A stretch of 63,181 nt of DNA, counting the filler, from Folioceros fuciformis (taxonomy: Eukaryota), in the NCBI GenBank assembly GCA_049999805.1. It is 6 parts of 6 records of this genome, joined end to end, with 100 filler letters (N's around TTAATTAATTAA, not from the genome) between each part and the next. Parts side by side here need not be neighbours in the genome. Positions count along the whole stretch, not along the records: positions 61,862 to 63,181 come from JBNGIO010005424.1; 5 more parts are not named here. One strand, 5' to 3'. Each line of letters starts with the position of its first letter. Within the stretch, counting starts at the first letter, position 1. Below are positions 102 to 63,181 of this stretch, piece after piece. The notes below the pieces were generated by a model. It had not been told where the DNA came from and ran no database searches. It saw nothing but the letters and a program-made list of their open reading frames with translations. The translations under genes were made by a program, and so were the position numbers.

Positions 102-2447
102 ATGACGACGTTCTTGCAGCGTCCGGGAGGAGCTGCGCTTCCTCCTCATGGCTTGAATCAGGCTATCGTTTCTGCTTTCGGGTCGGGACCGTGCGCGGTG
201 GGCTTCAGCTGCAGGGCAAGGAAGCAGCATCTGCAGCATCGGGTCGTTCCTGGAAGCTTCCTCCTTACGACACCTGCGGTGGCAGAGCACGGCATTGCTA
301 CGTCATGGATGGAGAAGGAGGAGGTGGTGAGAGCGCGGTGCGAGGGCTTGGACGCGGAGTTGAGCGAGGCCGTTGAGGCGTTGGAATCCCTGGTGGAACG
401 AGGATGTCGCGTGGAGGCGGGACTGCTCTTCCGGCTCGTGAAGAGGTGCGTTGCGCAGCAGGATCTCGCGGCCGGGAGGCGGGTGCATGCTGCGGCTGTG
501 GCGGCCGGGTTCGAGGGGAGTGCATTCCTCGCTAACCACATCATCGGGATGTACGCGAAGCACGGGGAGCTGGAGGTGGCGATGGAGGTGTTCGGGAAGG
601 TGCTGGTTCCGAACGCGCATGTCTGGGCATCCATCATCTTGGCGCATGCTAGGGCGGGGCGGGCGAAGGAGGCCGTCGCGCTCTACAGGCGTTTGCGAGA
701 GTCCGGCGCGCGGGCGGACAGCCATATCTTTGTGGCGGTGCTCACGGCGTGCGCCATAGCCGGAGACCTGAGCTCCGGGAAGCAGGTGCACTTCGACCTG
801 CTGGAGAGCGAGGGGAGCGCGAACGGCTTCGTCGGGAACAGCCTGGTGCACATGTACGCCAAGTGCGGGAGCTTGGAGCTGGCGCGAGACGCGTTTGAGA
901 GGCTTGAGACGCGGGACGTGGTGTCTTGGAACGCCATGATTGCAGGGTATGCGCAGAGGGACCGGGGCCGGGACGCCCTGTCGCTGTTTTGGAGGATGGA
1001 GCGTGAAGACGTGAAGGCGGATGAAGTGACGTATGCTTGCGTGGTGAAGGCGTGTGCGGGAGGAGGGTACCTGGAGCTCGGGCGGGAGGTTCATGCCCGG
1101 GTTCGGGAACGTGGGATGGAAGGCGATGTGGTTGTAGGGAGCGGGCTGGTGGATATGTACGCCAAGTGCGGGAGCTTGAAGGAGGCGAGGCAGGTGTTCG
1201 ACGGGTTAGCCGGGCGGAATGTGGTCACTTGGAACGCCATGATCGGGGGCTACGCGCAGCAGGGGCGAGGGAGGGAGGCCATGGAGCTCTATGGGGCGAT
1301 GAGGCGGGAGATGGCCTGGAAGGCCATGGCTGATCAAGGCACCTTCGTAGCGGTTTTGCAGGCGTGCGGGAACGTGGGGGCGTTGCAGCAGGGGAGGTGG
1401 GTGCACGCAGAGGCGCAGGAGCGGGGAATGGAAGCGGATGTGGCCGTGGGTAATTGTCTGGTGGACATGTATTGCAAGTGCGGGAGCATGGAGGATGCGC
1501 GGCGGGTGTTCGAGAGGCTGGAGTGTAGGGATGTGGTGACATGGAATTCGCTTCTGACGGGGTACGCGGAGCACTGCGATGGCGTCGGAGCGGTGCGGTG
1601 TTGGAGGGAGATGCGGGAGGCGGGGTGTGAGCCGAACGCGACGACATTTTTGTGTCTTCTCGTGGCCTGCAGTCACGCGGGGATGGTGGAAGAAGGGCGG
1701 GCGCTTCTGAGGGAGATGGTGGACGAGCACGGGGTGGAGCCGGGGGATGTGCACTACAACTGCATGGTGGATCTGCTGGGGCGGGCGGGTCGGCTGGAGG
1801 AGGCAGAAGAGATCTTGCAGACGAGGAAGTTCGGGAGCTTTGTGGTCGGCTGGACTGCTCTGCTGACCGCATGCAAGAGCCACGGGGATGCGGTACGGGG
1901 TTTGCGGTGCTTCAAGCGGCTGGTGGAGCTGGAGCCGGGGAATTCGACTCCGTATGTTCTGCTCGGGAGCATCTACGCGGGCGCGGGGAGATGGGAGGAT
2001 GTGGACAGAGTGGAGCGGCTGCGGAGGGATGCCAGGGCGTGGAAGAAGCCTGCCAAGGCGTGCATCGAGGTGGAGAACACCGTCCACGAGTTCACTGTGG
2101 GAGAGGAGAGGTGTGACGTGTCCTCCAAGATCAAGAGCGTGGAAGCCAGGTTGAAGCATGAAGGCGGGCATGTGCCGCAGACCAGCCTGGTGCTCAAGCC
2201 CGTGTCCGAGCGGGAGAAGGAAGATGCCCTGTGCGGGCATGCGGAGAAGCTGGCCTTGGCGTATGGGCTTCTCAACACTCCAGATGGCACCACACTGCTG
2301 GTCACCAAGAATCTTCGCATGTGTGGGGACTGCCATAGCAGCACCAAGATCATGTCTCGGATTGAGCAGAGAGCTATCGTCGTCCGAGACGCTCACCGAG
2401 TGCACCGCTTTGTGGGTGGCTCTTGTTCATGTGGTGATCGGCATTGA
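102..2447 (+). CDS. PLS-class PPR protein with C-terminal DYW:KP (DRH-type) deaminase domain; organellar RNA-editing factor
   Basis: Intronless 781-aa ORF with repeated P/L/S motifs (MYAKCG...VVSWNAMIAGYAQ) and E1/E2 motifs. It continues WKKPAKACIEV, HAEKLALAYGL, NLRMCGDCH and ends SCSCGDRH. Confidence 0.95.
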   Translation: MTTFLQRPGGAALPPHGLNQAIVSAFGSGPCAVGFSCRARKQHLQHRVVPGSFLLTTPAVAEHGIATSWMEKEEVVRARCEGLDAELSEAVEALESLVERGCRVEAGLLFRLVKRCVAQQDLAAGRRVHAAAVAAGFEGSAFLANHIIGMYAKHGELEVAMEVFGKVLVPNAHVWASIILAHARAGRAKEAVALYRRLRESGARADSHIFVAVLTACAIAGDLSSGKQVHFDLLESEGSANGFVGNSLVHMYAKCGSLELARDAFERLETRDVVSWNAMIAGYAQRDRGRDALSLFWRMEREDVKADEVTYACVVKACAGGGYLELGREVHARVRERGMEGDVVVGSGLVDMYAKCGSLKEARQVFDGLAGRNVVTWNAMIGGYAQQGRGREAMELYGAMRREMAWKAMADQGTFVAVLQACGNVGALQQGRWVHAEAQERGMEADVAVGNCLVDMYCKCGSMEDARRVFERLECRDVVTWNSLLTGYAEHCDGVGAVRCWREMREAGCEPNATTFLCLLVACSHAGMVEEGRALLREMVDEHGVEPGDVHYNCMVDLLGRAGRLEEAEEILQTRKFGSFVVGWTALLTACKSHGDAVRGLRCFKRLVELEPGNSTPYVLLGSIYAGAGRWEDVDRVERLRRDARAWKKPAKACIEVENTVHEFTVGEERCDVSSKIKSVEARLKHEGGHVPQTSLVLKPVSEREKEDALCGHAEKLALAYGLLNTPDGTTLLVTKNLRMCGDCHSSTKIMSRIEQRAIVVRDAHRVHRFVGGSCSCGDRH

Positions 2448-16315: not shown

Positions 16316-16415
16316 NNNNNNNNNNNNNNNNNNNNNNNNNNNNNNNNNNNNNNNNNNNNTTAATTAATTAANNNNNNNNNNNNNNNNNNNNNNNNNNNNN
16401 NNNNNNNNNNNNNNN
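16316..16415. other. Artificial scaffold spacer N44-TTAATTAATTAA-N44 (also 26785-26884, 41351-41450, 56633-56732, 61762-61861)
   Basis: An identical 12-mer with stops in all six frames is centred in five 100-bp N blocks. Confidence 0.95.
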
Positions 16416-16429
16416 TGCCGGACGAGGAG

Positions 16430-18442
16430 GTGGAGAGCCGGAAGGGCAAGCGGGCCAGAGAAAGCGATGAGAGCGACTCTGAGGAGTCGGGGTCGGAAGA
16501 GTCGGTGCAGAAGCCGCCGCCGCGACCTGCAAAGAAGACGAGGAGCAAGAAGATAGGGAATGGCGGAGGAAGCGATGAGGAGGATGGAGGGAAGGCGGCT
16601 TTGGAAGATGAACTCAGCGTGGAGGCCAGGGGGAGTGTTGGCGAGGAAGCACGGGCTTGGACGGCGGCTTGGACGCGGCAAAATCAAGCTAACGCAGTTA
16701 AGGCTGCGGCCAGAGCTGAAGCAGCGAGGCTTCGGAAGGGGAAGGGGAAGCGGGTAGGGAGAGGTGGAGGGAGCGATTCTGATTCTGATTCCGTGGCCTT
16801 GCGGAAGCGGCAGCGACCTAGACGGAGTAGTCGGGCACAGGAGACCGAGAATGAGGATGGTTCGGAGGAGGATTTGGATGCCTTCAACGTTGAGGGGATA
16901 GAGAATTCTGAGGACAATTCTGGTGGTGGAGGTATGGAGGATCGCGGAGCTGGACCATCGGGAGCTCGGGGAGGAGATGCGGAGGCGCGGGTTGGTGCTG
17001 CCAGGGCCAGGAACCTGGCCATCGCTCGCCGCAGGGCTTCGCATTTCGCTCACTTTCAGGCTGTGGATGTAGAGGTAGCGGCGGAGGTGGTGGCACCGGT
17101 GGCGGCAGCGCCATTGCCACGGCCGCGCGGGAATTGGCCGGGGCCGTTTTCTGTGGCCTCGGATTTGGTGAGGGCAAGAGCTGCCGCTGCTGAGCAGCGG
17201 AAGGCGTCCTTGGCGGCGCAGGGACAGGGGCGGCCGGCGCAGGACAGGCATATCTGGAAGCCCTCCAGGAATGAGAGCTTTGTGGATTTGAGAAGAAGGC
17301 CGCCTTCACTTCACAGCATAACGGTGGAGCTCCTGTGCAAGTACATCGATAACGTGGATTGCCTTGGAGTCTTGGCGGAGGAGTCCAGCAGGAAGTTGTG
17401 CATCAGGTTGTGTGAGTTGAGGAAGATGAGCGGGAGGGTGATGGCACTTCTCGTTTCCGGGCAGCCGGTTGAGCTCATGATTCCTGATTTTTCTGCTGTT
17501 CCAGAGAACGAGTTCTGTGCAGCAGCCCGGGAGTTGTCGACTGCGCGGCTGCAAACTCTTAAGTTGGGCATGTGCGGCCGAGTGTTGGCCGATCAGTTTG
17601 TTGAATGCTTCACAGGGTCTGAGAAGCAGGGGTTTCCTGTGCTCCGAACCTTATCTCTGCAGGGTGCGTACAGGCTGGCGGACCGGGGACTGATGAAATT
17701 GGTGGGGGCTTGCAAGGAGCTCACATGCTTGGAGCTGCGGCAGTGTAATTCCATCACGGAGTCTGGCTTTGTGAAAGTGATGGAAGTGGTAGGATCCAAG
17801 TTGGAAGCGCTATCGTTGGAGGGAAGTGATCAGCTCAACCCGGAGGATATGCGCGAAGCCTTCTTACTCATGCCCAATCTTCGGCGACTGTCATTGTCGG
17901 ACATCGTGGGGGTCACAGATAAGTTTGTGCAGTTGGTAACATGCTGTTCGGGAGCGAACTTGAGGGAGCTGGATGTTGGTGGCTGTGAGAAGCTGACAGA
18001 TGAGGCAGTGAGTGCGATTGTCGGTTTCTGCCCCGGCCTCAGAGTCCTCAATTTGGACAACTTGAATCTCCTTACAGATGTATCTCTGGAAACCATGGTG
18101 AACAGGGGAGTGAGCTTTGAGAAGCTGTCTTTGAGGCGTTGTAACTTCAGTGACGAGGCTTTGGCTTGTCTGGTCACTTCTTTAGAAGACAAGCTCAAGC
18201 AACTGTGTGTGAATTCAGTTCGACAGGCAGGGGACCAAACTCTCCAGGCACTTGCTACCCACTGCAAGGCCTCCTTGGAAGAGCTGGATGTCTCTTGGTG
18301 CCGCAACATGACCGATGAATGTCTTGGCCTCCTTGCAGATTCGTGCCGGCATCTTACAAAGCTTACCCTCTTCGGGTGCACCCAAGTCACTGAGGTCTTC
18401 ACTAACGGCCACTCCAACTCCAGCCTCGTCCTCATTTCCTAG
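16430..18442 (+). CDS. RAD7: RAD7-like LRR (RNI-like) nucleotide-excision-repair protein; 5' end probably in gap
   Basis: Acidic/basic disordered N-terminus, the Rad7-family motif WPGPFS, then PSL..C and many cysteine-containing LRRs ending LFGCTQVTEVFTNGHSN. Confidence 0.8.
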   Translation: MESRKGKRARESDESDSEESGSEESVQKPPPRPAKKTRSKKIGNGGGSDEEDGGKAALEDELSVEARGSVGEEARAWTAAWTRQNQANAVKAAARAEAARLRKGKGKRVGRGGGSDSDSDSVALRKRQRPRRSSRAQETENEDGSEEDLDAFNVEGIENSEDNSGGGGMEDRGAGPSGARGGDAEARVGAARARNLAIARRRASHFAHFQAVDVEVAAEVVAPVAAAPLPRPRGNWPGPFSVASDLVRARAAAAEQRKASLAAQGQGRPAQDRHIWKPSRNESFVDLRRRPPSLHSITVELLCKYIDNVDCLGVLAEESSRKLCIRLCELRKMSGRVMALLVSGQPVELMIPDFSAVPENEFCAAARELSTARLQTLKLGMCGRVLADQFVECFTGSEKQGFPVLRTLSLQGAYRLADRGLMKLVGACKELTCLELRQCNSITESGFVKVMEVVGSKLEALSLEGSDQLNPEDMREAFLLMPNLRRLSLSDIVGVTDKFVQLVTCCSGANLRELDVGGCEKLTDEAVSAIVGFCPGLRVLNLDNLNLLTDVSLETMVNRGVSFEKLSLRRCNFSDEALACLVTSLEDKLKQLCVNSVRQAGDQTLQALATHCKASLEELDVSWCRNMTDECLGLLADSCRHLTKLTLFGCTQVTEVFTNGHSNSSLVLIS

Positions 18443-27900: not shown

Positions 27901-28902
27901 TTCCGTCTACTAGCCTGCGCAGAGTGGGATTGCACAAGTGGCTCTAGTTCCGGCTCCAACTTCGCCTGGGAAGGGGCCAGCTTTTCTGATGTCTTTCTAT
28001 TCATCATCATAGAAATTCCGTTTGTGGCGTTATAATTGTTCGGGGTGGGGACAATTTTCAGGGACATCATGTGGCTGCATGGCTTACTTCCACGTCCCGG
28101 GCCATGGTGCATCCTCCGAAAACAGAGGGCTGTGACCTAATTAAAATGAAATGATACATGTCGGTGCCCCAGTCATTTCATTTTCTTCTGATTGCGAGCA
28201 CGACATGAAGGAAAGTTCGACCGTCGTGTGAGGTTAACTGAGCTAGGAGGACAACAAGACTGCTAAGAACTCGTTTCACATTGCTCTACTTCAAGTAGAA
28301 CCGAAACCCCGGAAACAGACCTAACGAAGGGCGCGAAACGTGAATTCAGTTAACCAGAACGTGCTGACAGGATACGGTACAAAGCCCGGGGAAATGTTGA
28401 AGCCTCATGGAAGAGGGAGCTGATCTCAAAATCTCAAGAATTGTCTTCCTAGATGAGGTGAATGTGAGTCATCTTGCAGCCTTCTACAGGCGCGGAATTG
28501 GAAATTTGTGCTGCAATCTGTGATTGTGCTTCAGCTTCAGTGTTGGGTTGTTCGCTGATTTCGACACCAGCTTCGCATCAACTTCTCGTAAAGCACATGA
28601 CAATCTGAGGAACGGTTGGATAGGAAAGCTTGATTCCGAGAAGCCCCTTACTGGAGGAGGAGGAATCCCAGCGAAGCGTGACACCTGAGAGCCAGATATG
28701 CAGTTCGGTACAGCGAGCGTCTGGCTTGAAAGGGATCTTCCAGCAGCGAAGGTCTGCCTCCTCGGGCAGCAGCGCCGGTGGGGACATCTTTGGACATTTA
28801 TGTGGGATTGCAGGCAGTGTAAGGAGAGGGCCTGTTCGCATGACTTCCCAAGTAGAAAGACCCATCAGGTCTTGCACTGTGGCAATGCGGCAGAGAGAGT
28901 AG

Positions 28903-31900
28903 ATGCACGGCTGGCTGCTTCGGGCACGGAGAGGGCTCATGGTGCCCTCACATGGCACTGGAGTGTGCCGGATGAGAGTGACCCTAGTCTCGGAGGAAGG
29001 GGTGAGCGAGCTGTGTCGGCAGGGGCATCTCGATGAGGCCGTTGAGTCTCTGGCAGTTTTGGTACGCACGGACCCACATGTCCATTTCTTGAAAAATCTC
29101 TTCTACGCGGTGCTAAAAGGATGCGTTGCTAAGAAGGATCTGCCTCTGGGGCGCCGTGTACATGCTCTCACTGTGAAGGCAGGGTTTGAGTTGGATACAT
29201 TCTTGTGCAATCATGTCCTGCGAATGTATGCTTCTCATGCCATGTTGCAGGAGGCTGTGGATGTTTTTACTGTGGTTGTCAAACCAGATGCCTTTACATG
29301 GTCCGCCATAATTTCTGCGCATACTAACCATGGACAAGATAAGCAGGCTATAGAACTTTACCATGCTATGCGAAGGTCGAGTGTGATGCCAGATGGCCAT
29401 GTTTTCGTAGCAGCGATCCAGGCCTGTGCACGGGGAGTTGACTTGAAATCTGGGCAACAGGTGCATGCTGACGTGTTGGCTAGTGGCATTGAGCCCAACT
29501 TGTTTGTTTGGAATAGTTTGGTGGACATGTATGCAAAGTGTGGCAATTTGCAGGACGCGCGGGAATTGTTCGATGGGCTTGGGAAGAAAGATGTGGTGAC
29601 ATGGAGTGCCATGATAGCTGGATATGCACAGCAGGACAAGGGGCAAGAAGCCCTTCATCTTTACAGGGCTATGAAAGTAGAAAGCGTGGTGGCACCCAAT
29701 TGCGTGACATTCTTGTGCCTCTTGCAGGCGTGTGCAAGTGTTGGCGTCCAGGCTTTGGAAATGGGAAAGCGGCTTCATGCTCATATTAGAGAAGAAGGAC
29801 TTCAGGGTGATGTGGTTTTAACTGGGAGCCTGGTAAACATGTACGCAAAGTGTGGCAGCCTTGGGGATGCTCGGACAGTGTTTGATGGACTTGATAAAAA
29901 AGACGTGGTGACATGGAGTGCCATGATAGCAGGATATTCCCAACAGAGCATGGGGCAGGAAGCCCTCCGCCTCTATCAGGATATGCAAGATGAAGGTATG
30001 GCTGCACCCAATTCTGTGACATACGTTTCCCTTCTCCAGGCATGTGCAAGTGTGGGTACCTCGGCTCTGGAGAAGGGAAAGCAGCTTCATGGACAAATCA
30101 AAGAACGGAGGCTTCAGGATGTTGTGTTGGTAGCCAACGGCTTGGTACACATGTATGCAAAGTGCGGCAGCCTCGTGGATGCACAGTGTGTGTTTGACGG
30201 ACTTGGTGAAAAAACTGTTGTGACGTGGAGTGCCATGATAGCAGGATATTCCCAGCATGGCATGGGGCAGGAAGCTCTGCATCTTTATAGCTTGATGCAG
30301 GAGGAGGGCATCAGTGCACCCAATTCTATGACATTTGTGTGTCTCCTGCAGGCATGTGCAGGTCTGGGATCCTTGGGTTTGGAGATGGGCAGGCATCTGC
30401 ATGCACAGATCACAGAAGGAGGATTTCAGGCAGACATCTTTGTCGCCAATAGCTTAATAAACATGTATGGGAAATGTGGCAGGCTTGAGGATGCCCGGGG
30501 GGTGTTTGACAGACTTGTTCAGAAAGACGTAGTGACCTGGAATGCCATGATAGCAGGATATTCCCAGCAGGGCATGGCGCAAGAAGCCCTCCAACTGTAC
30601 ACGGCTATGCAACATGAAGGCATTGTTGGACTTGACTCTGTATCATTTGTGTGCCTCCTGCAGGCATGTGCAAGTGCCGGTACTCTGGGGTTGGAGAAGG
30701 GAAAGCAGCTTCATGCTCAGATTAGAGAATGCGGCCTTCTGGCTGATGTTGTAGGCGGAAGCCTTGTGAACATGTATGCAAAGTGTGGCAGCCTTGAGGA
30801 TGCTAGGGCACTGTTTGATCAGCTTGCTCAGAAACATGTGGTGACCTGGAATACCATGATTGCAGGATATTCCCAGCGGGGCATGGGGCAAGAAGCCCTA
30901 TGTCTTTTCAGGCGTATGGGTGAAGACAGGGATGTCACACCCGATTCAGTGACATTTGTGTCACTTCTGCAGGCATGTGCCAGTGTGGGCTCTGAAGCTT
31001 TGGAGAAGGGGAGGCACATTCATGCTCAAATTAGGGGACAAGGACTGGAATCTGACATGTTTGTTGCTAGCAGTTTGATAAACATGTATACAAAGTGTGG
31101 CAGCCTGGAGGATGCTCAAAGAGTGTTTGACAGACTAGATGAAAAAAATGCGGTGACGTGGAGTGCCTTGATAGCAGGATATTGCCAGTTCGGCATGGGG
31201 CAGGAAGCATTTCGGCTTTACTATGCGATGCAAGAAGAAGGCATGGATGAACTTGATGCCGTTGTGTTCACATGCCTTCTGCAAGCATGTGCGAGCAGTA
31301 ACACCCCATCTCTGGAGAGGGTTGCACAGCTTCATGTACAAATTAGAGAAAAAGGGCTTCAGTCTGATGTATTTTTGGCTAACAGCTTAATTAACATGTA
31401 TGCAAAGTGTGGCAGCCTAGAGAACGCTCAGGGTGTGTTTGATGGGCTTGGTCAAAGGAGTATCGAGACGTGGAATGCCATAATAGCAGGGTATTCGCAA
31501 CAGGGCCTGGCACTAGAAGCCCTTTGGCTTTACAATGCTATGCAAGAAGAATACAAGGTTGGCCCCAATTCCGTCACATTTGTGCGTCTCCTGCAGGCTT
31601 GTGCAATGGTGGGCAACTCGGCTTTAGGAATAGGGAAGCAGCTTCATGCACAGAGTAGACAGCGTGGACTCCACGCCGATGTGTTCGTGGCGAGTACTTT
31701 GATAAGCATGTATGCAAAGTGCGGCAGCCTCCAAGATGCTCGGGCCGTGTTTGATGGTCTTGTTCAGAAAAACCTGGTGACGTGGAGTGCCATGATAGGT
31801 GCATACTCCCAGCATGGCATGGGGCAGACGGCCCTTGATCTATACAGGGCCATGGAAGGAGGAGGAGTGGCTGCACTCGATGCTGTGACGTTTCTGTCCC

Positions 31901-33357
31901 TCCTGCAGGCATGTGCGACTGTTGGGATGTCAGCTTTAGAGATGGGGATGCAGCTGCATGCACGTATTAGAGAACAAGGCCTTCATGCTGATGTGTTTGT
32001 AGCCAACAGCTTGGTACACATGTACGCAAAGTGTGGGAGCCTTGAGCATGCTAAAAGTGTGTTTCACAGTCTGGTTCAAAAGGATGTGGTAACATGGACT
32101 GCCATGATAGCGGGATGTTCCCAGCAGGGTCTGTTGCAGGAAGCCCTTCATCTCTATTGGTTGATGCAAGAAGAAGGTACAGTTACACCCAGCTCAATGA
32201 CTTTTGTGTCCCTGCTGCAAGCATGTGCACGTGTAGGAACCCCAGCATTGGGGATCGGACGGCAGCTTCATTCACAAATTAGAGAACGAGGGCTTCATGC
32301 TGATGTGTTTGTAGCCAGCAGTTTGGTAGACATGTATGCTAAATGTGGAAGCTTAAAGGATGCTCGGGACGTATTTGACAGGCTTGGTGAAAAGAATGTG
32401 GTGACGTGGAGTGCCATGATAGCAGGATATTCCCAGCAGGGCAGGGGCCAGGACGCCCTCGACCTCTACAGGGCTATGCAACGAGAACGTCTCTCTGCAC
32501 CAAATTCCGCGACATTTCTGGGCCTCCTCCACGCATGTGCCAGTGTGGCAGCGTTGCATCTGGGAAGGCAGCTTCATGCTGAGATCAGAGAGCAAGAGCT
32601 TCAAAACGATATGCTCGTAGCTGGCAGTTTGATAAACATGTATGGCAAGTGCGGTAGCATGGTTGATGCAGAGCAGGTGTTTGAGGCGTTACCCGAAAGG
32701 GATACTGTCGTTTGGAATGCACTAATCGCAGGATTCAGCCGTCAAGGAGAGAGTTCTTTGGTGTTCGACTTGGTGCACAGAATGACAGAGGACGGGCTAA
32801 ACCCAGACGGAGTCACGTTCCTTAGTGTACTATCAGTCTGCAGTCATACGGGACTTGTGAACAAGGGGCGAGAGTACTTTGATGCTATGAGCGGACAGCA
32901 CGGAGTCACTCCCACGGTGGACCACTACACGTGCATGGTGGACCTCCTAGGTCGTGCAGGACACCTGCACGACGCACTGGCCTTGGTGAGATCAATGCCG
33001 GTTCTTCCTACCCCTGCTGTCTGGCACACACTTCTCGGTGCCTGTCGAAAGTGGAGCAACTTTGAGGTGGGACGCCACGCTTTCGACGAAGCAGTGAAGT
33101 TAGACCAGAATGACGCCTCAGCATATGTGTTAATGGCGAACATCTACAGGGGTGTGCATTTGTGGGAGCAGGCGCAAGAGGTCCAGACAAGGAGAGTAAG
33201 AATCGGAGCGAAGAAGTCGCCAGGGCAGAGCTGGTGGACTGACATGGACGGGTCAGTGCACAGCTTTTTAGTCGGGGACAAGAAGCCTCGCTCAACATCC
33301 CGGGGACCACGGAGTCTTCAAATGGGCCGAAACAGGAAGGACCAGCACTTGCAGTGA
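28903..33357 (+). CDS. Very long PLS-class PPR protein (about 12 PLS triplets) ending in E domains and a truncated WW-type PG box
   Basis: Intronless 1484-aa ORF with 12 MYxKCG-type S motifs and E1/E2. KKSPGQSWWTDMDGSVHSFLVGD is followed by about 25 unrelated residues and a stop, with no HxE or CxxC. Confidence 0.95.
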   Translation: MHGWLLRARRGLMVPSHGTGVCRMRVTLVSEEGVSELCRQGHLDEAVESLAVLVRTDPHVHFLKNLFYAVLKGCVAKKDLPLGRRVHALTVKAGFELDTFLCNHVLRMYASHAMLQEAVDVFTVVVKPDAFTWSAIISAHTNHGQDKQAIELYHAMRRSSVMPDGHVFVAAIQACARGVDLKSGQQVHADVLASGIEPNLFVWNSLVDMYAKCGNLQDARELFDGLGKKDVVTWSAMIAGYAQQDKGQEALHLYRAMKVESVVAPNCVTFLCLLQACASVGVQALEMGKRLHAHIREEGLQGDVVLTGSLVNMYAKCGSLGDARTVFDGLDKKDVVTWSAMIAGYSQQSMGQEALRLYQDMQDEGMAAPNSVTYVSLLQACASVGTSALEKGKQLHGQIKERRLQDVVLVANGLVHMYAKCGSLVDAQCVFDGLGEKTVVTWSAMIAGYSQHGMGQEALHLYSLMQEEGISAPNSMTFVCLLQACAGLGSLGLEMGRHLHAQITEGGFQADIFVANSLINMYGKCGRLEDARGVFDRLVQKDVVTWNAMIAGYSQQGMAQEALQLYTAMQHEGIVGLDSVSFVCLLQACASAGTLGLEKGKQLHAQIRECGLLADVVGGSLVNMYAKCGSLEDARALFDQLAQKHVVTWNTMIAGYSQRGMGQEALCLFRRMGEDRDVTPDSVTFVSLLQACASVGSEALEKGRHIHAQIRGQGLESDMFVASSLINMYTKCGSLEDAQRVFDRLDEKNAVTWSALIAGYCQFGMGQEAFRLYYAMQEEGMDELDAVVFTCLLQACASSNTPSLERVAQLHVQIREKGLQSDVFLANSLINMYAKCGSLENAQGVFDGLGQRSIETWNAIIAGYSQQGLALEALWLYNAMQEEYKVGPNSVTFVRLLQACAMVGNSALGIGKQLHAQSRQRGLHADVFVASTLISMYAKCGSLQDARAVFDGLVQKNLVTWSAMIGAYSQHGMGQTALDLYRAMEGGGVAALDAVTFLSLLQACATVGMSALEMGMQLHARIREQGLHADVFVANSLVHMYAKCGSLEHAKSVFHSLVQKDVVTWTAMIAGCSQQGLLQEALHLYWLMQEEGTVTPSSMTFVSLLQACARVGTPALGIGRQLHSQIRERGLHADVFVASSLVDMYAKCGSLKDARDVFDRLGEKNVVTWSAMIAGYSQQGRGQDALDLYRAMQRERLSAPNSATFLGLLHACASVAALHLGRQLHAEIREQELQNDMLVAGSLINMYGKCGSMVDAEQVFEALPERDTVVWNALIAGFSRQGESSLVFDLVHRMTEDGLNPDGVTFLSVLSVCSHTGLVNKGREYFDAMSGQHGVTPTVDHYTCMVDLLGRAGHLHDALALVRSMPVLPTPAVWHTLLGACRKWSNFEVGRHAFDEAVKLDQNDASAYVLMANIYRGVHLWEQAQEVQTRRVRIGAKKSPGQSWWTDMDGSVHSFLVGDKKPRSTSRGPRSLQMGRNRKDQHLQ

Positions 33358-53608: not shown

Positions 53609-56600
53609 TCAGTCAGGAAACCCACGCGCTGCCAAAGCTGCTTCGAAACGCTTGAATGAAAGAGGACGCAACTCCGTGCTCGTATCATCTTGAGGGGCTG
53701 GATAGTAATCCGACCGGAGCTGAAAGTCACGCAAATTGGTGCACTGTTTCAGCATGAAGAGAAAGTGTTCATGCACCGTGCCATGAACAAACAGCTTTCT
53801 TAGAGTGACACACTCCGACATCAGCCCCACTGCCGGAAGGGAAAGACCTCGGTGATTGAGATCTTTGTCAACTGGCGGACTGTACTTCAACTCCATCAGC
53901 CCCAGCTGCCTCAAATCTGTTAAGAGAAACCTTTCCCACTGGCTCAGGTCATGTCGACCCTGCGGGGCACTCAAGGCATAGCCCACTGCGTCACTGAAAT
54001 CCAGCTCGAGCTTTGAGAGGGAACGGTAGCGAGCCAGAGACCCCAAACCCCAGGAATTTGCCGGTGGCTTATACAGCTCTTTTACCTCGCCTTCTGCCCT
54101 GATATTGATCTCCTCTAAGACAGGACAAGAGCTGAGGCCCATGGCAGAGAGGTACTTGAGCAATGTCCAGGGTGTCGTCCACAAGGACAGAGACCTTAAG
54201 GAGCTCCACGTGCAGGGAGGTGGCTTCCGCCTTCGAGGAGTGGAATACTGAGTGCCACTCCAACCCATGGACAACACATCAGAAACATTGAGTGGATGTG
54301 TCGAATCATGATTTAGCTTGCCTCTTCCCGTGCCCGCCAGAGAATTGGAAGCTGTCTTATGGGCTGGAAACTGAGAAGTAGCCGACCAACCAGACGGTAG
54401 CTGCATCCAACTCTCTGCATGGTTCATTCCCGAAAGCTGATTACTGAACTGTGAGCACGAAACGCCATCTGGTGTGCTGCTAACATAAGCAGATTGCTGG
54501 CCACCGGCATCACTGAAGCAGCCACGGCCTTTCGTTCGAGAAGCAGAATAGGAATGATGCGAATCATAAAGGCCTGGAACTCCCATAACAACAAAAGAGT
54601 CATCATCATCTAGAGATCTCCTTATCCTTTTACTAGGAACCTGCATCCCTCCTTCCCCTGGATCAAAACCTATGGTCACAAAGTCACTGGCGTCTCCCGC
54701 ATCAAAGCCCATCGTCACAAAACCTGTATCTTGCTCTCCAGCATCGAAACCCAGCGTAACGAAGTCACTGTCCACGCAACCCATCCGGTCTGTAGACTTG
54801 TAACACCCATGCCCTGGTGCATGACTCGGTTGTGTGACGTGGAAGCGTGGCGGTGCAGGATATGGTTCTGGTGCATGATACCCAACAGCCACGAAATCAG
54901 TTCCTTCGCCAACGGAATCAAAGAAACCTGCACCTAGGGACGGTTCCGAGCCCCGCTTTCTGGACTTGCTCTTCCTGCTACTCAAGGCGGGGTGTCGTTC
55001 ATGACCAGAGTTCTTGCTCATAGCGTCCTGAAACAGATCTTCAGCACTCATGTTGAGTATGTCAGCAACGCTCAACTCACCAGACTGCCCAGATGTGCCT
55101 ACAGCTGCGGCTTCTTCGCGCGCTACAATTTCCTCATCCCAGACGCAGTCTATGCTGAGAGTGCGAATCACGGGCTGTATTGGCTCCAGGGCTCGCAAGA
55201 CCTGGGCACAGTTGAGCTGCCCGCAGCTGGTCACCTCCACATCCCGAAGAGTCGGGGCCAGGCACTTTACGCAGTTTGCAAGCCCATCGTAGGATATGCG
55301 CCCAACGCTCCGCAAATGCAGTTCCTGAAGACGTGTACAACCCTTGGCAATGGCAGACAAGGACCTGTCCACAAGGTCTGCACAATCCTTGATGGACAAC
55401 TTAACCAGCTGCTTGCAAAGAGCAAGTCCATCTGGCTCCGGTCCCTTGCACACTCCGTGAAAGTGGCTCAACCTAAGAACTCTCAGATTCTTGCAGTGGC
55501 TCTGTAGGGACTCCAGCGCAGGACCTGCATCCCTGACATTCTGAGCCAGGAAGAAGACCAGCTCTTCGAGGTGAGGAAGAGACTTGAACATTTCCTGCAG
55601 TCCAGTGCGAGTGATGTTGGCATCCTCCGATGCAATACTGTCTGTAACTCGACCTCGAGACGGATCCCACGCATTAGTGTCCACTAGATGGAGCACCCGG
55701 AGCTTTGTACAGGTTGTACCAAGGCCCATCAGGGCCTCGTCCCCGACGGGATCCACAAATCGTGGGTCGAAATCGCACAACACAAAAAATTCCTCCAAAT
55801 TCTTACAGCACTGGGTGATAGTCCGAAGCTCCTGCGACCGGAAGCCCTCTGGCGAAATCTTCAAGAGATTCAAACTCCGAAGGTTGCTAGCACAAGAGCC
55901 TTCCACAGCCAAGGCAGGGGCCACATCCTCCGTCCAGCAGTAAAACTTAGAAAGGTCCAGGCTGTTGAGTTTGGGGCAATTACTGAGCAAGCACACGAAC
56001 TCGCTCCCAGCTTCCAGGGCCGACTCAGGGCCGGCCGGCCTCTGATGCCATCTAACGAGCCGCACAGACTCCACGGAGGGCCACAAACAGGCCACCATCT
56101 GCACATCGTGCACACTCTTGGCATAGATAGTCACCTCCTTCACCAGGGGAAACGCTTGCAAGATGAGCCGGGCAAATCGATCCCCCTGCCTGATAGCCAT
56201 GTAGATAGAGTAACCCCAGGGAGAGACCAGCGACAAGTCAAGGCAAGTCACTTGATTGAAGCACATGGGAAGGGAGGCGAGATCAACAATGTTACCCCGC
56301 AAAGTCAAACTAGTCCTCGTCAGCCGCTCCAGCAGGTACCAATCACGGCACACAAGGGACATGCAATTCCTGGCGCGCACGTCAGTGACGCAGTTGAAAA
56401 TGCTGATGAGAATCGGCTCAGGGATATCAGAGATGTGCGTGCCATGCAGCCCGCACTTGCAACCAGGCGGATGCCTTGCATGCCTCTGCAACTCGGGCCC
56501 CAAGAACGGAGCGTGCAGCACAGGCGGGGGCTCCATGAGGAATGCTCCCGCACCGGACCCCGGGAAGTGCCCCCAGCCCGGTGCCGCAGCCGTGGACTGC

Positions 56601-56623
56601 AAAACCCCGCCCCCGAAATCCAT
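53609..56623 (-). CDS. MAX2: F-box/LRR protein MAX2/D3 (karrikin/KL-strigolactone signalling) with a ~300-aa internal insertion
   Basis: F-box ISDIPEPIL..RARNCMSLVC..LERLTRTSLTLRGN, LDLSLVSPWG, LVRWHQRP, LDLSKFYCWTED, and C-terminal LRKLFVHGTVHEHF..DYYPAPQDDTSTELR. Intronless. The frame is open to the adjacent gap, so the true start may lie upstream. Confidence 0.95.
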   Translation of the reverse strand: MDFGGGVLQSTAAAPGWGHFPGSGAGAFLMEPPPVLHAPFLGPELQRHARHPPGCKCGLHGTHISDIPEPILISIFNCVTDVRARNCMSLVCRDWYLLERLTRTSLTLRGNIVDLASLPMCFNQVTCLDLSLVSPWGYSIYMAIRQGDRFARLILQAFPLVKEVTIYAKSVHDVQMVACLWPSVESVRLVRWHQRPAGPESALEAGSEFVCLLSNCPKLNSLDLSKFYCWTEDVAPALAVEGSCASNLRSLNLLKISPEGFRSQELRTITQCCKNLEEFFVLCDFDPRFVDPVGDEALMGLGTTCTKLRVLHLVDTNAWDPSRGRVTDSIASEDANITRTGLQEMFKSLPHLEELVFFLAQNVRDAGPALESLQSHCKNLRVLRLSHFHGVCKGPEPDGLALCKQLVKLSIKDCADLVDRSLSAIAKGCTRLQELHLRSVGRISYDGLANCVKCLAPTLRDVEVTSCGQLNCAQVLRALEPIQPVIRTLSIDCVWDEEIVAREEAAAVGTSGQSGELSVADILNMSAEDLFQDAMSKNSGHERHPALSSRKSKSRKRGSEPSLGAGFFDSVGEGTDFVAVGYHAPEPYPAPPRFHVTQPSHAPGHGCYKSTDRMGCVDSDFVTLGFDAGEQDTGFVTMGFDAGDASDFVTIGFDPGEGGMQVPSKRIRRSLDDDDSFVVMGVPGLYDSHHSYSASRTKGRGCFSDAGGQQSAYVSSTPDGVSCSQFSNQLSGMNHAESWMQLPSGWSATSQFPAHKTASNSLAGTGRGKLNHDSTHPLNVSDVLSMGWSGTQYSTPRRRKPPPCTWSSLRSLSLWTTPWTLLKYLSAMGLSSCPVLEEINIRAEGEVKELYKPPANSWGLGSLARYRSLSKLELDFSDAVGYALSAPQGRHDLSQWERFLLTDLRQLGLMELKYSPPVDKDLNHRGLSLPAVGLMSECVTLRKLFVHGTVHEHFLFMLKQCTNLRDFQLRSDYYPAPQDDTSTELRPLSFKRFEAALAARGFPD

Positions 56624-56835
56624 CAACCCTTGNNNNNNNNNNNNNNNNNNNNNNNNNNNNNNNNNNNNNNNNNNNNTTAATTAATTAANNNNNNNNNNNN
56701 NNNNNNNNNNNNNNNNNNNNNNNNNNNNNNNNTGTGGGGAGGAAGGAGGAGGAGCGGCGTAGCATGGGTGGAGGGGCAGGATGCAGGACGAAGCAAGGAT
56801 GAGGGGGAGGAGGGAGAGCAAGGAGGTGAAAGAGA

Positions 56836-58993: not shown

Positions 58994-60763
58994 TCATGTC
59001 TCCTCGGTGCGGACCTGTTGATACACATGGCTTTTGATGATAATCTTGCCGACTCGAAATCCTGGAACTACCATAAAACCCACCTTGGGCAGGAATGTGG
59101 ATTTCTCATGCTCGTCGGCATCATCATCCACCACATTCACCATGTAAGTCGAGTCGAAATCTGCTCCACTCCTGACGCGAAAGATCCTTGCATGTGGCTC
59201 GAACGACAGGGCCAGCCTCTGCAAAAGCCACACCCACGTAGCAAACAGACAGAAGCTCTTAACGTAAGGGTGATCCGGTTGCTGGAGTAAATGCTGAAGG
59301 TGTGTCGGCGTGATGCTGGCTATCTTCTGGTCAAGAAACCGTAAAAACCGGGCTTCACTGCTTGATCTTTCATTCTTCGCCCGGAGCTCTGATATGTACT
59401 GGAAAGTGGGTCTGCTCTTGAGCTCCTCGAACTCCTTGAACCGCAGTGCTTGAGCCTCCTCCAAATCTAATGTGGGGCAGAAATATCCTTGGTTCGTGTC
59501 AAACCCATCCACTTCGAAACCACGGAACATGGCCGTGGAGATGGCATACGCAGTGGAATACTTGGCTTCGTGCGATTTTCTCGCGAACCGAATGCTCTTG
59601 ACCACTTCAATGTTGTCACCGTCATCTTCCGGAAGCTGGTAGCTTATCCTAGCTTCTTTATGCGCAACGTCATAGTCTCTGCAAAACCTCCTCAGCTTAT
59701 CCATCAGTTTTATAACACAGTCATCAAGCATAGGAGGCGACGCCGACGTGTCCAGGTAAGACCCGATCTGTTGGGACTTCGCTTTCTCCTGCTCAAACAT
59801 GTTCAGATGCTGGTTAAGCTTCTGGATCTGCATATCCTTCCCACGCAAACTGGCTGCCATCTCCTCTCGAATCTTATCTATCTCATTGCATGCCCGGCGG
59901 TAATTCGAGATCAAATTTTCCAAATCTTTTTCATGACGAATTTTCAGATCCGCGGTGTCTGCCAACAACGCACCCACCGTCTGGACATAGTGGTCGTAAT
60001 CCACGGGCTTGCCCTCAAGCTCCTCCGGAAATTTCGGAACCAGATCTTCCACCTTCTGTTTCGGAAGAAGCTTCCTCTGCACAAGGAAATTCCTCAGTTT
60101 CCCGTGGCACTCGAAAACCTTGAGAATCCATGTTTCACATGCCCCTCCCTTCTCTCCAATTTCGACAGCCATCTGCTGATAACGAGCGGCAAACCCATCG
60201 GCTAGGGAGAGCAATTCCTGGTACTGCCTTGAGGGAGCTGTGGAAAGTGAACCCTCGATTCTCGGATCCCCAATCTCAGACATTTCCTGGCTCCCTCGCT
60301 TTTCGACATCCCGCGTTTGCTGGGTTGGGTCCAACTCGTTCGTGACCAGTCCACCGCGCTGGTCAGGGAGCACCACACGCTGATCAGGGCTTGAACGTTC
60401 TTCCTCCCTCCCCGCAGCCTGGTCGTTGAGGACAAGCTGCGAGCTGGACCCGCCCGCATCGGTTGACACACCTGATCCATCTGGCTTCACCTTGTCAGTG
60501 GACATCAAACTCATGACCCCCTCCACCTTCTTCTCACCTGCTCTCGGGGCCTCTTCACCATCCAAGATCACAAACGGCTGCAGCTTCTGCTGCCAAGCCA
60601 TAGATTCCGACTTCGCCGCGCCCGCAATCCGTCTCAGGTCCTTGAAGTGATGTTCAAAACACGCAACCCACCGAAGCAGCTCCTGGAACAACCGCAGCAG
60701 CTCCACCTCCGTTGGAGCTTGAGGTGCCTCTCTACCCCGAAACCATGACGTAGACAGGCTCAT
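58994..60763 (-). CDS. IRK-interacting protein/GIL1-like coiled-coil protein
   Basis: Long ORF ending VWLLQRLALSFEP..IFRV..G..FDSTYM..V..KVGFMVVPGFRVG..IIKSHVY, typical of the IRKI/GIL1 C-terminal domain. An upstream exon is possible. Confidence 0.8.
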   Translation of the reverse strand: MSLSTSWFRGREAPQAPTEVELLRLFQELLRWVACFEHHFKDLRRIAGAAKSESMAWQQKLQPFVILDGEEAPRAGEKKVEGVMSLMSTDKVKPDGSGVSTDAGGSSSQLVLNDQAAGREEERSSPDQRVVLPDQRGGLVTNELDPTQQTRDVEKRGSQEMSEIGDPRIEGSLSTAPSRQYQELLSLADGFAARYQQMAVEIGEKGGACETWILKVFECHGKLRNFLVQRKLLPKQKVEDLVPKFPEELEGKPVDYDHYVQTVGALLADTADLKIRHEKDLENLISNYRRACNEIDKIREEMAASLRGKDMQIQKLNQHLNMFEQEKAKSQQIGSYLDTSASPPMLDDCVIKLMDKLRRFCRDYDVAHKEARISYQLPEDDGDNIEVVKSIRFARKSHEAKYSTAYAISTAMFRGFEVDGFDTNQGYFCPTLDLEEAQALRFKEFEELKSRPTFQYISELRAKNERSSSEARFLRFLDQKIASITPTHLQHLLQQPDHPYVKSFCLFATWVWLLQRLALSFEPHARIFRVRSGADFDSTYMVNVVDDDADEHEKSTFLPKVGFMVVPGFRVGKIIIKSHVYQQVRTEET

Positions 60764-61861
60764 GGTGGTCCGTTGACTCTGAGGCGGAGAAAGCTGCACA
60801 CGACGAAGAGAAACTTACCACATTGCCCGCGCTCTTCTGAAGGACATCCGTATCACCCAAGCTCCCATCCTCCAGTGAGCAAGACACGAATCAACTTGTA
60901 CCTCATCCGAGCTAGCATTGGCTAATGTCTTCCGAGAACCAGACAACATTCTGCTTCACCGACCACGATTTCACCAATCTCCTGTTACGAAGTTACCCCT
61001 TCCTGATCAGAAACCTCTTCCACACTGATGTCTAAGCTAAGCACCAAATCTAAGACGTAGGAACAAGTTGCGGGTGAAAGCCATATGCTACACAGTACAA
61101 TCAATCACAGCACAGGTCTTCGTGACAGAACGCCAGTGAAGAAACGCCGGCTAACATGTGGCCAGCCTCTCCCGACACTTGAGCCAGCAACCCCCTGCGC
61201 CTCGCTCAGCCTGCTTGAAGCAAGGACGCAGCACAAACGCTGGACTGAAATCGGGATAGCTCCCCCGGCGCAGGCCGCAGTATCCCTCCGCTTTCCTTTC
61301 CTCATCCTCGATCGGATCGGGAGTCCGACTTTGACAGAATCCAACACTGTACGCTTCCGCGTCACTGCAGCAACACGCGGATTTCCTTTCGTATTCTATT
61401 GGTTTACTGTCGTCACAACTTGGCTCCCTGGAGCCTAGTGGCACTTGAGCCCGAACGAGTTGAAAAGTGGGATATCGATTCGTTTCACAAAAAATCTTTC
61501 TCATTACCCGAAGGTCGAAGTGGTTGATGTTTTGCTTTGAAGCGTCGTCATCTTCACTACAGACATTCACGACCTTCGATCTCGAGGGAAACAGCTAGGT
61601 TTTTATATCGTGGAAACGAAACCACACGACTCAAGATTCCTCCAAGCAGCTTGGTAGCAGCGTCCAGGGCAGTGGAGGGCCTGTTACAACGGCCTAGGTG
61701 TCTCAAGAAGATGGTGCCAAAGTTCATAGAAGAAGATGCTCTCCCACACGGATCGAAGGCTNNNNNNNNNNNNNNNNNNNNNNNNNNNNNNNNNNNNNNN
61801 NNNNNTTAATTAATTAANNNNNNNNNNNNNNNNNNNNNNNNNNNNNNNNNNNNNNNNNNNN

Positions 61862-62811
61862 GCATGTGCAGAGATTATGGAAAACCACATGAAGACATCC
61901 GGTTTCCCTACCCTGTTGAACACATCCATCGCCTCCTTTAGCCTACCTCCACATGCATACATGCGCAAGATATGGTTCCCCAAATATGCATTCGACTCGT
62001 ACCCAAGTTTGACTGTGAGATCATGAACTCGTCGCCCCACCACCAAATCCTTCTTAGCTGTACAGAGTTTTAACACTGTGTAAAACAGAGACTGAGAAAC
62101 GCCAGAGCCTGACTGCACCAGAGATTCCAGGGCTCCAACGGCCTCAGAAAGCTTCCCCTTGTGACATAACATGCTCACGGTTGCAGCAGTTACGACGCCC
62201 GTTTCCAATTCTGCACGCCTGCCAGATCCACGCTTATACAGAGAGCTGCACTCGAAAGAAGAGACTCCATGGGCCATTGGATGTGGAAGTGCTGGGTTTC
62301 TTGCACTGCTGCCCCTGGAGCCCATTTCACCACCTGTACGCCTTCCAGGTTCAGGGTTATCTGGAGAGCTCAAGTTGGAAGCAGAGGAACCGAGACCCAT
62401 CTGCATATCCAAGGAGACGAGCTGCTCATCAACCCATGCTGGCTTTAACCTGTTGTCCAACCAGAGCACCTCCCCGGACCTCTTACGCCGGAAGTCAGGG
62501 GAACGGGAGCTCTTCTTGTCTCGTCTGTTATCCCACCACATGGTAGGGTCCAGAAAAAGTTGTTGCCACAAGTGCTCCTGCTGCTCCTGGCAACTACCAG
62601 CATCGTCGGAAAGCCCGTCCCTGCCCACACACGTTCTCGCTCTCGGACGTGGAAGTGCTGGGTTCCTGACACTGCTGCACCTGGAGGCTCTATTTGCAAA
62701 GGGATCACTCCCGAAGCTGAGGTGAGCGGGGGTTCCTGGTAGAGTCCTTGTACACACACCAATTCCAATTTGTTGGGTCCACAACAGGTCCGGTTGCCAT
62801 ACTGTGGCCAT
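61862..62811 (-). CDS. PLS-class PPR protein N-terminus with an OSB-type PDF motif; 3' part lost in gap
   Basis: ATG at 62811 and a transit-peptide-like start. LWQQLFLDPTMWWDNRRDKKSSRSPDFRRKRSGEVLWLDNRLKPAWV is followed in frame by PLS repeats homologous to the N-terminal repeats of the 28903 PPR. Confidence 0.88.
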
Positions 62812-63181
62812 CTTTCAGGGACCGCTGTCGGAAGATGACTCTCACAAAAGTCTCGTTTAGGCAGATCCCCGGCCGGTTACACTGTACGTACGTATGTATG
62901 ACCACAACAGCTTAAAGGGGTGAACCGTGAGCGGTTCTGCCTGAAGGGGTGAGCCGTCCTGTAACACCTGTAGGCAAGCTGTCGGACTGGTCCTTTAAAC
63001 CACTCGACCATGTGACGGATATTCGGGAGTAGCTTTATGTTGCAGTTTAGATATACAAAACAGTTAATTGCTTATCAGCTGCCATAAGAAAAACGATCAT
63101 TTCATTTAACGCTTGTCAACGTTAAGTTCATGCTAAGCTACATACCCCAAGATCCATGGTACCACGGTCTCTGTTTCTGAT

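Follow-up and report, generated by a model that had tools for sequence, protein, structure and literature searches.

OSB proteins and pentatricopeptide repeat (PPR) proteins belong to two plant-organelle systems that have been studied separately, DNA recombination surveillance and RNA maturation respectively, and the locus described here raises the question of whether the two are naturally fused in a single gene and, if so, what the resulting protein might do. The locus lies at the end of a stretch of 63,181 nucleotides from Folioceros fuciformis (assembly GCA_049999805.1), referred to throughout as the window, for which a preliminary description had reported an OSB-type PDF motif joined to a PLS-class PPR protein. 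The minus strand contains one stop-free frame of 316 codons (62811..61864) that starts with an ATG at 62809-62811 and encodes the partial protein P0001. This frame runs uninterrupted from the ATG through the PDF motif and the PPR repeats to a scaffold-gap linker at 61762..61861 (N44, TTAATTAATTAA, N44, by sequence inspection), where the 3' end of the coding sequence (61864..62811) is lost; the PDF motif, the protein linker and the PPR repeats all fall within one gap-free piece, 61862-63181. The pattern W..LF..P..WWDNR..K.....PDF..K..GE.LWL.....P.WV corresponds to residues 82-127 of P0001, and the coordinates first given for it, 62419-62571, are correct and lie inside this minus-strand open reading frame (ORF).

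An OSB-type PDF motif ahead of PLS repeats

P0001 consists of four ordered parts, namely a disordered N-terminus (about 75 residues), a single compact PDF motif (about 64), a flexible linker (about 65) and a PLS repeat array. On the minus strand, the N-terminal region with a possible targeting sequence (residues 1-75; 62587..62811) and the S/G/R/P-rich linker that leads from the PDF motif to the first PPR repeat (residues 140-205; 62197..62394) were delimited by composition and by low predicted local distance difference test scores (pLDDT). The PDF motif (residues 76-139; 62395..62586, with its core at 62419-62571) was delimited by a profile of OSB motifs, an alignment to OSB1, invariant columns and a fold model, and the first P-L-S triplet together with the start of the next P repeat (residues 206-316; 61864..62196) by alignment to PLS9-PPR.

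The identity of the motif was assessed with a profile of 328 PDF motifs taken from OB-fold-bearing, PPR-free proteins (the OSB-only profile), which was searched against 1247 six-frame pieces of the window. The preliminary description had allowed that the motif might fail to match an OSB profile of this kind; P0001 matched at 82.9 bits (E 6.5e-25) over profile positions 5-67 of 68. Furthermore, a 71-residue segment of P0001 aligned by BLASTP to all four PDF motifs of OSB1 from Eutrema salsugineum (P0168), with 43-54% identity and E from 1e-16 to 2e-14. A phmmer search with the 71-residue segment against 1.84 billion representatives returned 656 matches at E<=1e-3, including 185 at E<=1e-10 and 19 at E<=1e-30, and one of the matches is 'protein OSB3' of Chenopodium quinoa (P0008), in which an SSB/OB domain is accompanied by four PDF stretches. 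No Pfam model matches the PDF motif of P0001, and a word-indexed homologue search with residues 60-140 returned nothing at E<=0.01, so that exhaustive HMMER and profile searches were needed to find relatives. Twelve columns are invariant across ten PPR-linked PDF motifs (P0001 and nine others), and these columns coincide with conserved positions of the OSB-only profile consensus. Within the 63 kb window, a six-frame regular-expression search found the combination of WW[DEN]N[RK] and PDF[KR] in P0001 and nowhere else. The OSB-only profile, the phmmer matches and the OSB1 alignment thus bear out the original assignment, and by its sequence the motif of P0001 is a genuine OSB-type PDF motif.

The PPR part was assigned by comparison with engineered and natural repeat families. 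Residues 206-313 align to one full P-L-S unit of PLS9-PPR (5iww_D; full E 1.7e-44, per-domain E 1.6e-13 to 5.9e-13), and the PPR part also matches the synthetic PPR-DYW protein 9kfx_A (E 1.4e-35), whereas the best P-class designer protein, dPPR-U10 (5i9f_A), gave a weaker match (E 2.9e-18). The Pfam PPR match of P0001 remained below threshold (22.6 bits against a cutoff of 25), and the score falls just short because only one triplet precedes the gap. By its tandem P-L-S repeats, one triplet of which lies before the gap, P0001 belongs to the PLS class. In the ESM Atlas, the whole protein retrieved only generic PPR clusters at 0.89, all from Streptophyta, and the PDF motif alone gave no usable match. 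The open frame and the PLS9-PPR match agree with the earlier placement of the motif in the same uninterrupted frame as, and N-terminal to, the PLS repeats. Beyond the gap linker, the minus strand at 61000-61761 contains no PPR-like ORF, which means either that the 3' part of the gene is absent or that the join is not contiguous.

AlphaFold2 was used to model all 316 residues (12-row alignment) and the motif alone (10 rows). In the full model, pLDDT is below 50 at residues 1-27, 29-36 and 38-65, and the PDF residues 71-140 form a block with pLDDT of 86-97 that comprises a helix (71-87), two short strands (92-94 and 107-109) and a second helix (126-140). The linker that follows has block pLDDT of 41-55 over residues 141-200, with residues 141-205 mostly below 55, and the PPR part, from residue 209, is built of helix pairs (seven helices, pLDDT above 90). 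When modelled alone, the PDF motif gave the same secondary-structure elements with a mean pLDDT of 86.5 and a predicted template modelling score (pTM) of 0.73. Foldseek of the PDF model against the PDB yielded no match at E<=0.001 (best E 5.8), and VIA-align against 48,161 chains yielded none at Z>=5 (best Z 4.0); this absence of a structural match is taken neither as a fold assignment nor as a claim of a new fold. According to these models, the PDF motif of P0001 forms a folded bead that a flexible tether connects to the PPR solenoid behind it. The PDF bead is thus a module of about 60 residues that is predicted to fold autonomously, for which no solved homologue was found, and which could be added to designer PPR proteins. 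The composition of residues 1-75, which contain no E or K and 8 R for a net charge of +3, is compatible with a targeting peptide, and the net charge of the PDF motif is near zero.

P0001 and the OSB proteins share the same PDF motif of roughly 50-60 residues, with the W, WWDNR, K, PDF, K, LW and P.WV positions common to both, and the number of PDF copies is variable in OSB proteins and in PDF+PPR proteins alike. However, an SSB-like OB fold precedes the PDF motif in OSB proteins, whereas P0001 instead has PPR repeats C-terminal of it. The OB fold (PF00436) was not found in P0001 by Pfam at E<=1, and residues 1-65 are predicted to be disordered; an OB profile iterated from OSB3 matched 0 of 24 PPR-bearing relatives, a set that did not include P0001. 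Because the OB fold was absent on testing, P0001 is not a member of the OSB family, and it is instead a PPR protein of the PLS class that carries a module borrowed from OSB.

PLS-class PPR proteins, which comprise the PLS, E, E+ and DYW subclasses, are specificity factors of organellar RNA editing. P0001 resembles them in its P-L-S triplet with the usual first repeat, in its strong matches to PLS designer proteins and in the presence of two further PLS genes in the window (one with E and DYW, one with E), but differs from them in carrying an extra folded N-terminal module of OSB origin. In PPR-SMR proteins and in PRORP (NYN nuclease), a PPR array is joined to a C-terminal catalytic domain, so that, as in P0001, RNA recognition by the array is paired with a second functional domain; the accessory module of P0001, however, is N-terminal, non-catalytic as far as known, and derived from a DNA-maintenance protein.

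Recurrence and ancestry of the PDF-then-PPR order

The best 150 of the 656 phmmer representatives were classified locally, and comprised 79 proteins with an OB fold and PDF motifs, 9 with PDF followed by PPR, and 62 with PDF only, many of the last being poly-PDF proteins or fragments. The OB fold is N-terminal of the first PDF motif in 78 of the 79 OB-bearing representatives. In the PPR-bearing group, one to three PDF copies precede the PPR repeats in every case (9 of 9), and the OB fold is absent throughout. The PPR families of these nine were confirmed by Pfam, among 16 proteins picked by length and motif position. A profile of the ten PPR-linked motifs matched 186 proteins at E<=1e-3, and PPR families are present in 12 of the best 120, the matches listed, again with PDF before PPR in all 12. 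Named sources account for 8 of the 12, all of them ferns or lycophytes: Adiantum capillus-veneris (two), A. nelumboides, Ceratopteris richardii, Pteridium aquilinum (two), Selaginella moellendorffii and Diphasiastrum complanatum. Seed plants, bryophytes and algae contributed only OSB-type or PDF-only proteins to the same 120. The closest relative among the matches listed, P0118 (401 amino acids), is 36% identical to P0001 over 256 residues (E 3e-49) and is collinear with it through motif, linker and repeats. PDF and PPR therefore do co-occur in ferns and lycophytes, and the concern in the preliminary description that the hybrid might be a one-off did not hold, since 12 of the 120 matches listed share this order.

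Removal of the motif by splicing had likewise been raised at the outset. The two Pteridium aquilinum members, P0100 and P0169, are ORFs from transcripts, and because they carry the motif it is not spliced away in these fern relatives. A DYW-type C-terminus had also been presumed for P0001, and this part of the preliminary description found no support: PF14432 (DYW_deaminase) is listed in 0 of the 12 PDF+PPR proteins among the 120 matches, and in the window copy the 3' end is lost at the gap. The E motif (PF20431) is present in 2 of these 12 (P0131 and P0169), and the full-length fern and lycophyte PDF+PPR proteins that were aligned end shortly after the last PPR-like repeats. In their lack of DYW and their sparse E motifs, these relatives differ from typical PLS-class PPR proteins.

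Public records label the PDF+PPR proteins as hypothetical or PPR-containing. The preliminary description knew of no functional account of this architecture, and literature searches likewise found no description of it in the searchable literature, a result on which subscription PPR papers and their supplements may bear. In the passages searched of a 2026 survey of 182 OSB genes (PMC13393729), the words PPR and pentatricopeptide occur 0 times.

The relationship among the motifs was examined with a poorly resolved tree of 69 motifs (19 PPR-linked, and 50 chosen from named OSB or PDF proteins) over 62 columns. Fifteen of the 19 PPR-linked motifs fall into one group, and the PPR label requires 3 changes on the tree; shuffled labels required 16.8 on average, and 0 of 500 shuffles gave so low a number. 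Forcing all 19 PPR-linked motifs into one clade improved the likelihood by 16.6 log-likelihood (lnL) units, with a p-value of 0.829 in the approximately unbiased test (p-AU). By these measures, the motifs are compatible with a single origin of the PPR-linked PDFs.

The window contains two paralogous genes that bear on the ancestry of the module. The first, on the plus strand at 28903..33357, has 1484 codons and encodes a PLS PPR protein with Pfam PPR families, an E_motif and a truncated DYW start; it has no intact PDF motif, its DYW_deaminase was not matched by Pfam, and it is 47% identical to P0001 over the shared repeats. A decayed PDF relic is located at 28766..28916 on the plus strand, in a frame that differs from that of the following PPR ORF. 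This relic is the only other match of the OSB-only profile in the window (28803-28916, 12.9 bits, E 0.0044). The W-D-.-R, DF and V..L positions persist in it, but the second W, the P of PDF and LW are gone. Its DNA is collinear with 62581-62490 of the P0001 gene (64% over 92 nt, E 9e-4), after which the PPR part follows at 66% over 321 nt. A collinear relic beside this gene indicates that the PDF module is ancestral to the subfamily and has since been lost in that copy.

The second paralogue, at 102..2447 on the plus strand, belongs to the same subfamily of PLS PPR genes and shares 44% identity with P0001 in the repeats common to both; it has an E motif and a DYW_deaminase domain (Pfam 4.7e-35). 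No PDF motif was detected in the approximately 370 nt available upstream of its first repeat. The DYW domain of this gene has KKPAKA at the PG-box position and ends in GDRH rather than DYW; it resembles the 'KP' type of DYW domain, which has been linked to U-to-C editing in hornworts, lycophytes and ferns, and may belong to that type. The G+C content at third codon positions is 0.78 in this gene and 0.52-0.55 in the other two PPR genes.

Copy number was approached through public contigs placed on 61863-63181 at >=85%, which came from four runs (X1, X2, X9 and X10), four studies and three organism labels; the best-matching run may represent the same sample as the window. The four runs contributed 1123, 763, 3422 and 5929 matching contigs, counts that say nothing on expression or exact gene number, and at place 62559, inside the PDF motif, a differing letter occurs in 61, 57, 88 and 104 contigs respectively. 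These data indicate, at the level of sequence, that the PDF-bearing gene belongs to an extensive family of similar sequences, represented under at least three organism labels. Under the window's own organism label (A), contigs extend over the 370 nt ahead of the ATG as well, which suggests that the P0001 gene was duplicated together with its promoter region. No single contig spans 61863-63181, and the runs X9 and X10 are without cover at 62875-63181. Contig joints, such as 62582 to 62765, lie between diverged paralogues, with uncalled letters in between, and no splice or indel conclusion is drawn from them.

Possible roles of the PDF module

In the passages covered of the review PMC6963530, the PDF motif of AtOSB1 is reported to be sufficient for binding of single-stranded DNA (ssDNA) and AtOSB2 is reported as a tetramer; in those of a second review, PMC4166229, AtOSB1 and AtOSB2 prefer ssDNA over double-stranded DNA or RNA. 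By analogy, the PDF module of P0001 and its relatives may bind ssDNA in the nucleoid and so anchor the PPR protein while the PLS array binds a specific nascent RNA, a reading that is preferred tentatively, as plausible rather than probable. The PLS array would read a specific organellar RNA, as PLS proteins do, and the PDF module would provide a second, sequence-unspecific hold on single-stranded nucleic acid, which would be ssDNA as in OSB. The protein could in this way be parked on single strands exposed in the nucleoid, such as transcription bubbles, R-loops and replication or recombination intermediates, and the long linker would let the PPR array catch its target on the nascent RNA. Members without DYW, as among the relatives, would act as specificity or stabilising factors and not as deaminases. 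If this were so, with an OSB-derived module on ssDNA and a PPR array on the nascent transcript, editing or stabilisation would be co-transcriptional by construction. The natural OSB-PPR fusion offers a ready-made test of a tether between RNA processing and the nucleoid; it persists in ferns and lycophytes, and the window's lineage has it in multiple copies.

Several points weigh against nucleoid anchoring. The preference for ssDNA, as stated in the review passages, is carried over from angiosperm OSB proteins, which also bear an OB fold, and both the ligand and the nucleoid location of PDF+PPR proteins we infer by analogy. The paralogue at 28903-33357 let its PDF motif decay yet kept a PPR frame of 1484 codons, and a PDF relic beside an intact PPR frame means that the module is dispensable at least for some copies. 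In four relatives (P0137, P0057, P0095 and P0100) only 1-20 residues precede the motif, a stretch hardly long enough for a cleavable targeting peptide, and an organellar location is thus not secured. In addition, the window copy is cut at its 3' end by the gap linker, and the PPR array rather than the PDF module may supply all of the relevant affinity.

It is possible, though on the unlikely side, that the PDF module binds RNA instead, gripping single-stranded RNA 5' of the PPR footprint and thereby raising affinity or preventing the site from folding; the nucleoid would then play no part. PPR arrays lie parallel to the RNA that they bind, their N-terminus facing its 5' end, as described in the structural literature on PPR10 and designer PPR proteins. 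That the PDF motif precedes the repeats in every case (9 of 9 among the best 150 of 656, 12 of 12 among the best 120 of 186) would suit such a role, as would its placement on a flexible linker in the AlphaFold2 model, a copy number of one to three, as for an avidity module, and the established action of PLS proteins on RNA. However, OSB1 and OSB2 are reported to prefer ssDNA over RNA in the passages covered of PMC4166229, and the PPR-linked motifs keep the conserved residues of OSB, so that the sequence suggests no change of ligand. Were the module to bind RNA, the PDF motif would need to be reinterpreted as binding single strands in general, and the view of OSB function would be altered.

The preferred anchoring model can also be extended to the subfamily as a whole. 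PDF+PPR proteins might constitute an old, conserved, DYW-less PLS class, at least as old as the ancestor shared by ferns and lycophytes, that couples the organellar nucleoid to RNA processing; this extension is rather doubtful. Another view, that the window copy and perhaps much of the subfamily are young, redundant or decaying paralogues in which the PDF motif is functionless baggage being lost, is distinctly unlikely. It would account for the frameshifted, degenerate relic at the gene at 28903-33357, for the lack of a detected PDF motif at the gene at 102-2447 and for the highly multi-copy state of the family, and it could accommodate the 42-nt internal duplication in the N-terminal region and the 3' end hidden by the gap. 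The motif of P0001 is nevertheless intact at all 12 invariant columns and scores as well as genuine OSB motifs, its frame is open for 316 codons, and the architecture has been kept in the fern and lycophyte lineages.

A role of the PDF module in protein-protein contact, such as oligomerisation or docking to OSB, nucleoid or editosome proteins, without contact to nucleic acid, appears very unlikely. The reported tetramer of AtOSB2 (passages covered of PMC6963530) and the predicted small helix/hairpin/helix unit without a structural match to a known nucleic-acid-binding fold are in its favour, but ssDNA binding is the only function reported for the PDF motif in the passages covered; the near-zero net charge of the motif argues neither way. 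That P0001 is an assembly chimera or a mis-joined frame of an OSB fragment and a PPR gene is of negligible likelihood, for although the window has many gap linkers and no single contig spans 61863-63181, motif, linker and repeats are in one gap-free piece (61862-63181), contigs of other runs tile across the linker, and the same order is found in independent genomes and transcripts of other species and in the single 1416-nt contig that encodes P0118.

Further features of the locus and of PDF proteins

A 42-nt direct repeat flanks the PDF motif of P0001, with copy 1 within the protein linker (62279..62320) and copy 2 within the N-terminal region (62645..62686). The copies are 88% identical and spaced 366 nt apart, and encode a similar peptide on either side of the motif. 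The repeat was considered as a mark of insertion of a mobile PDF cassette, and this was rejected: it is too long and too imperfect for a target-site duplication, and the motif is ancestral to the subfamily, as judged from the paralogue relic and the relatives. A 19-nt direct repeat (GCTTAAAGGGGTGAACCGT-like) is present in two copies 29 nt apart at 62910-62957, approximately 100-145 nt upstream of the ATG. The N44, TTAATTAATTAA, N44 element, a six-frame stop linker, occurs six times in the window between 5227 and 61861, along with two N100 stretches and one N10, and the joins across these gaps may not be contiguous.

Some further PDF proteins were noted among the relatives. The poly-PDF proteins P0003, P0002, P0010 and P0007 have 9-13 tandem PDF stretches in which no OB fold or PPR was detected, an example being a protein of 1160 amino acids from Kingdonia uniflora with 13 stretches. 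P0041 of Coptis chinensis (1526 amino acids) has three PDF stretches before a kinesin motor domain and, by elimination, an OB fold as well; an OSB gene and an adjoining kinesin gene may have been fused here in a single gene model. A four-PDF protein of 286 amino acids, P0029 (EukProt), is filed under the transcriptome of the dinoflagellate Biecheleria cincta, and could be genuine, from a plastid-related lineage, or a contaminant.

Three further long, stop-free ORFs noted in the window encode a GIL1/IRKI C-terminal domain (58994-60814, minus strand), an F-box (53609-56680, minus strand) and leucine-rich repeats (16364-18442, plus strand), and the neighbourhood of the P0001 gene is one of ordinary plant nuclear gene content.

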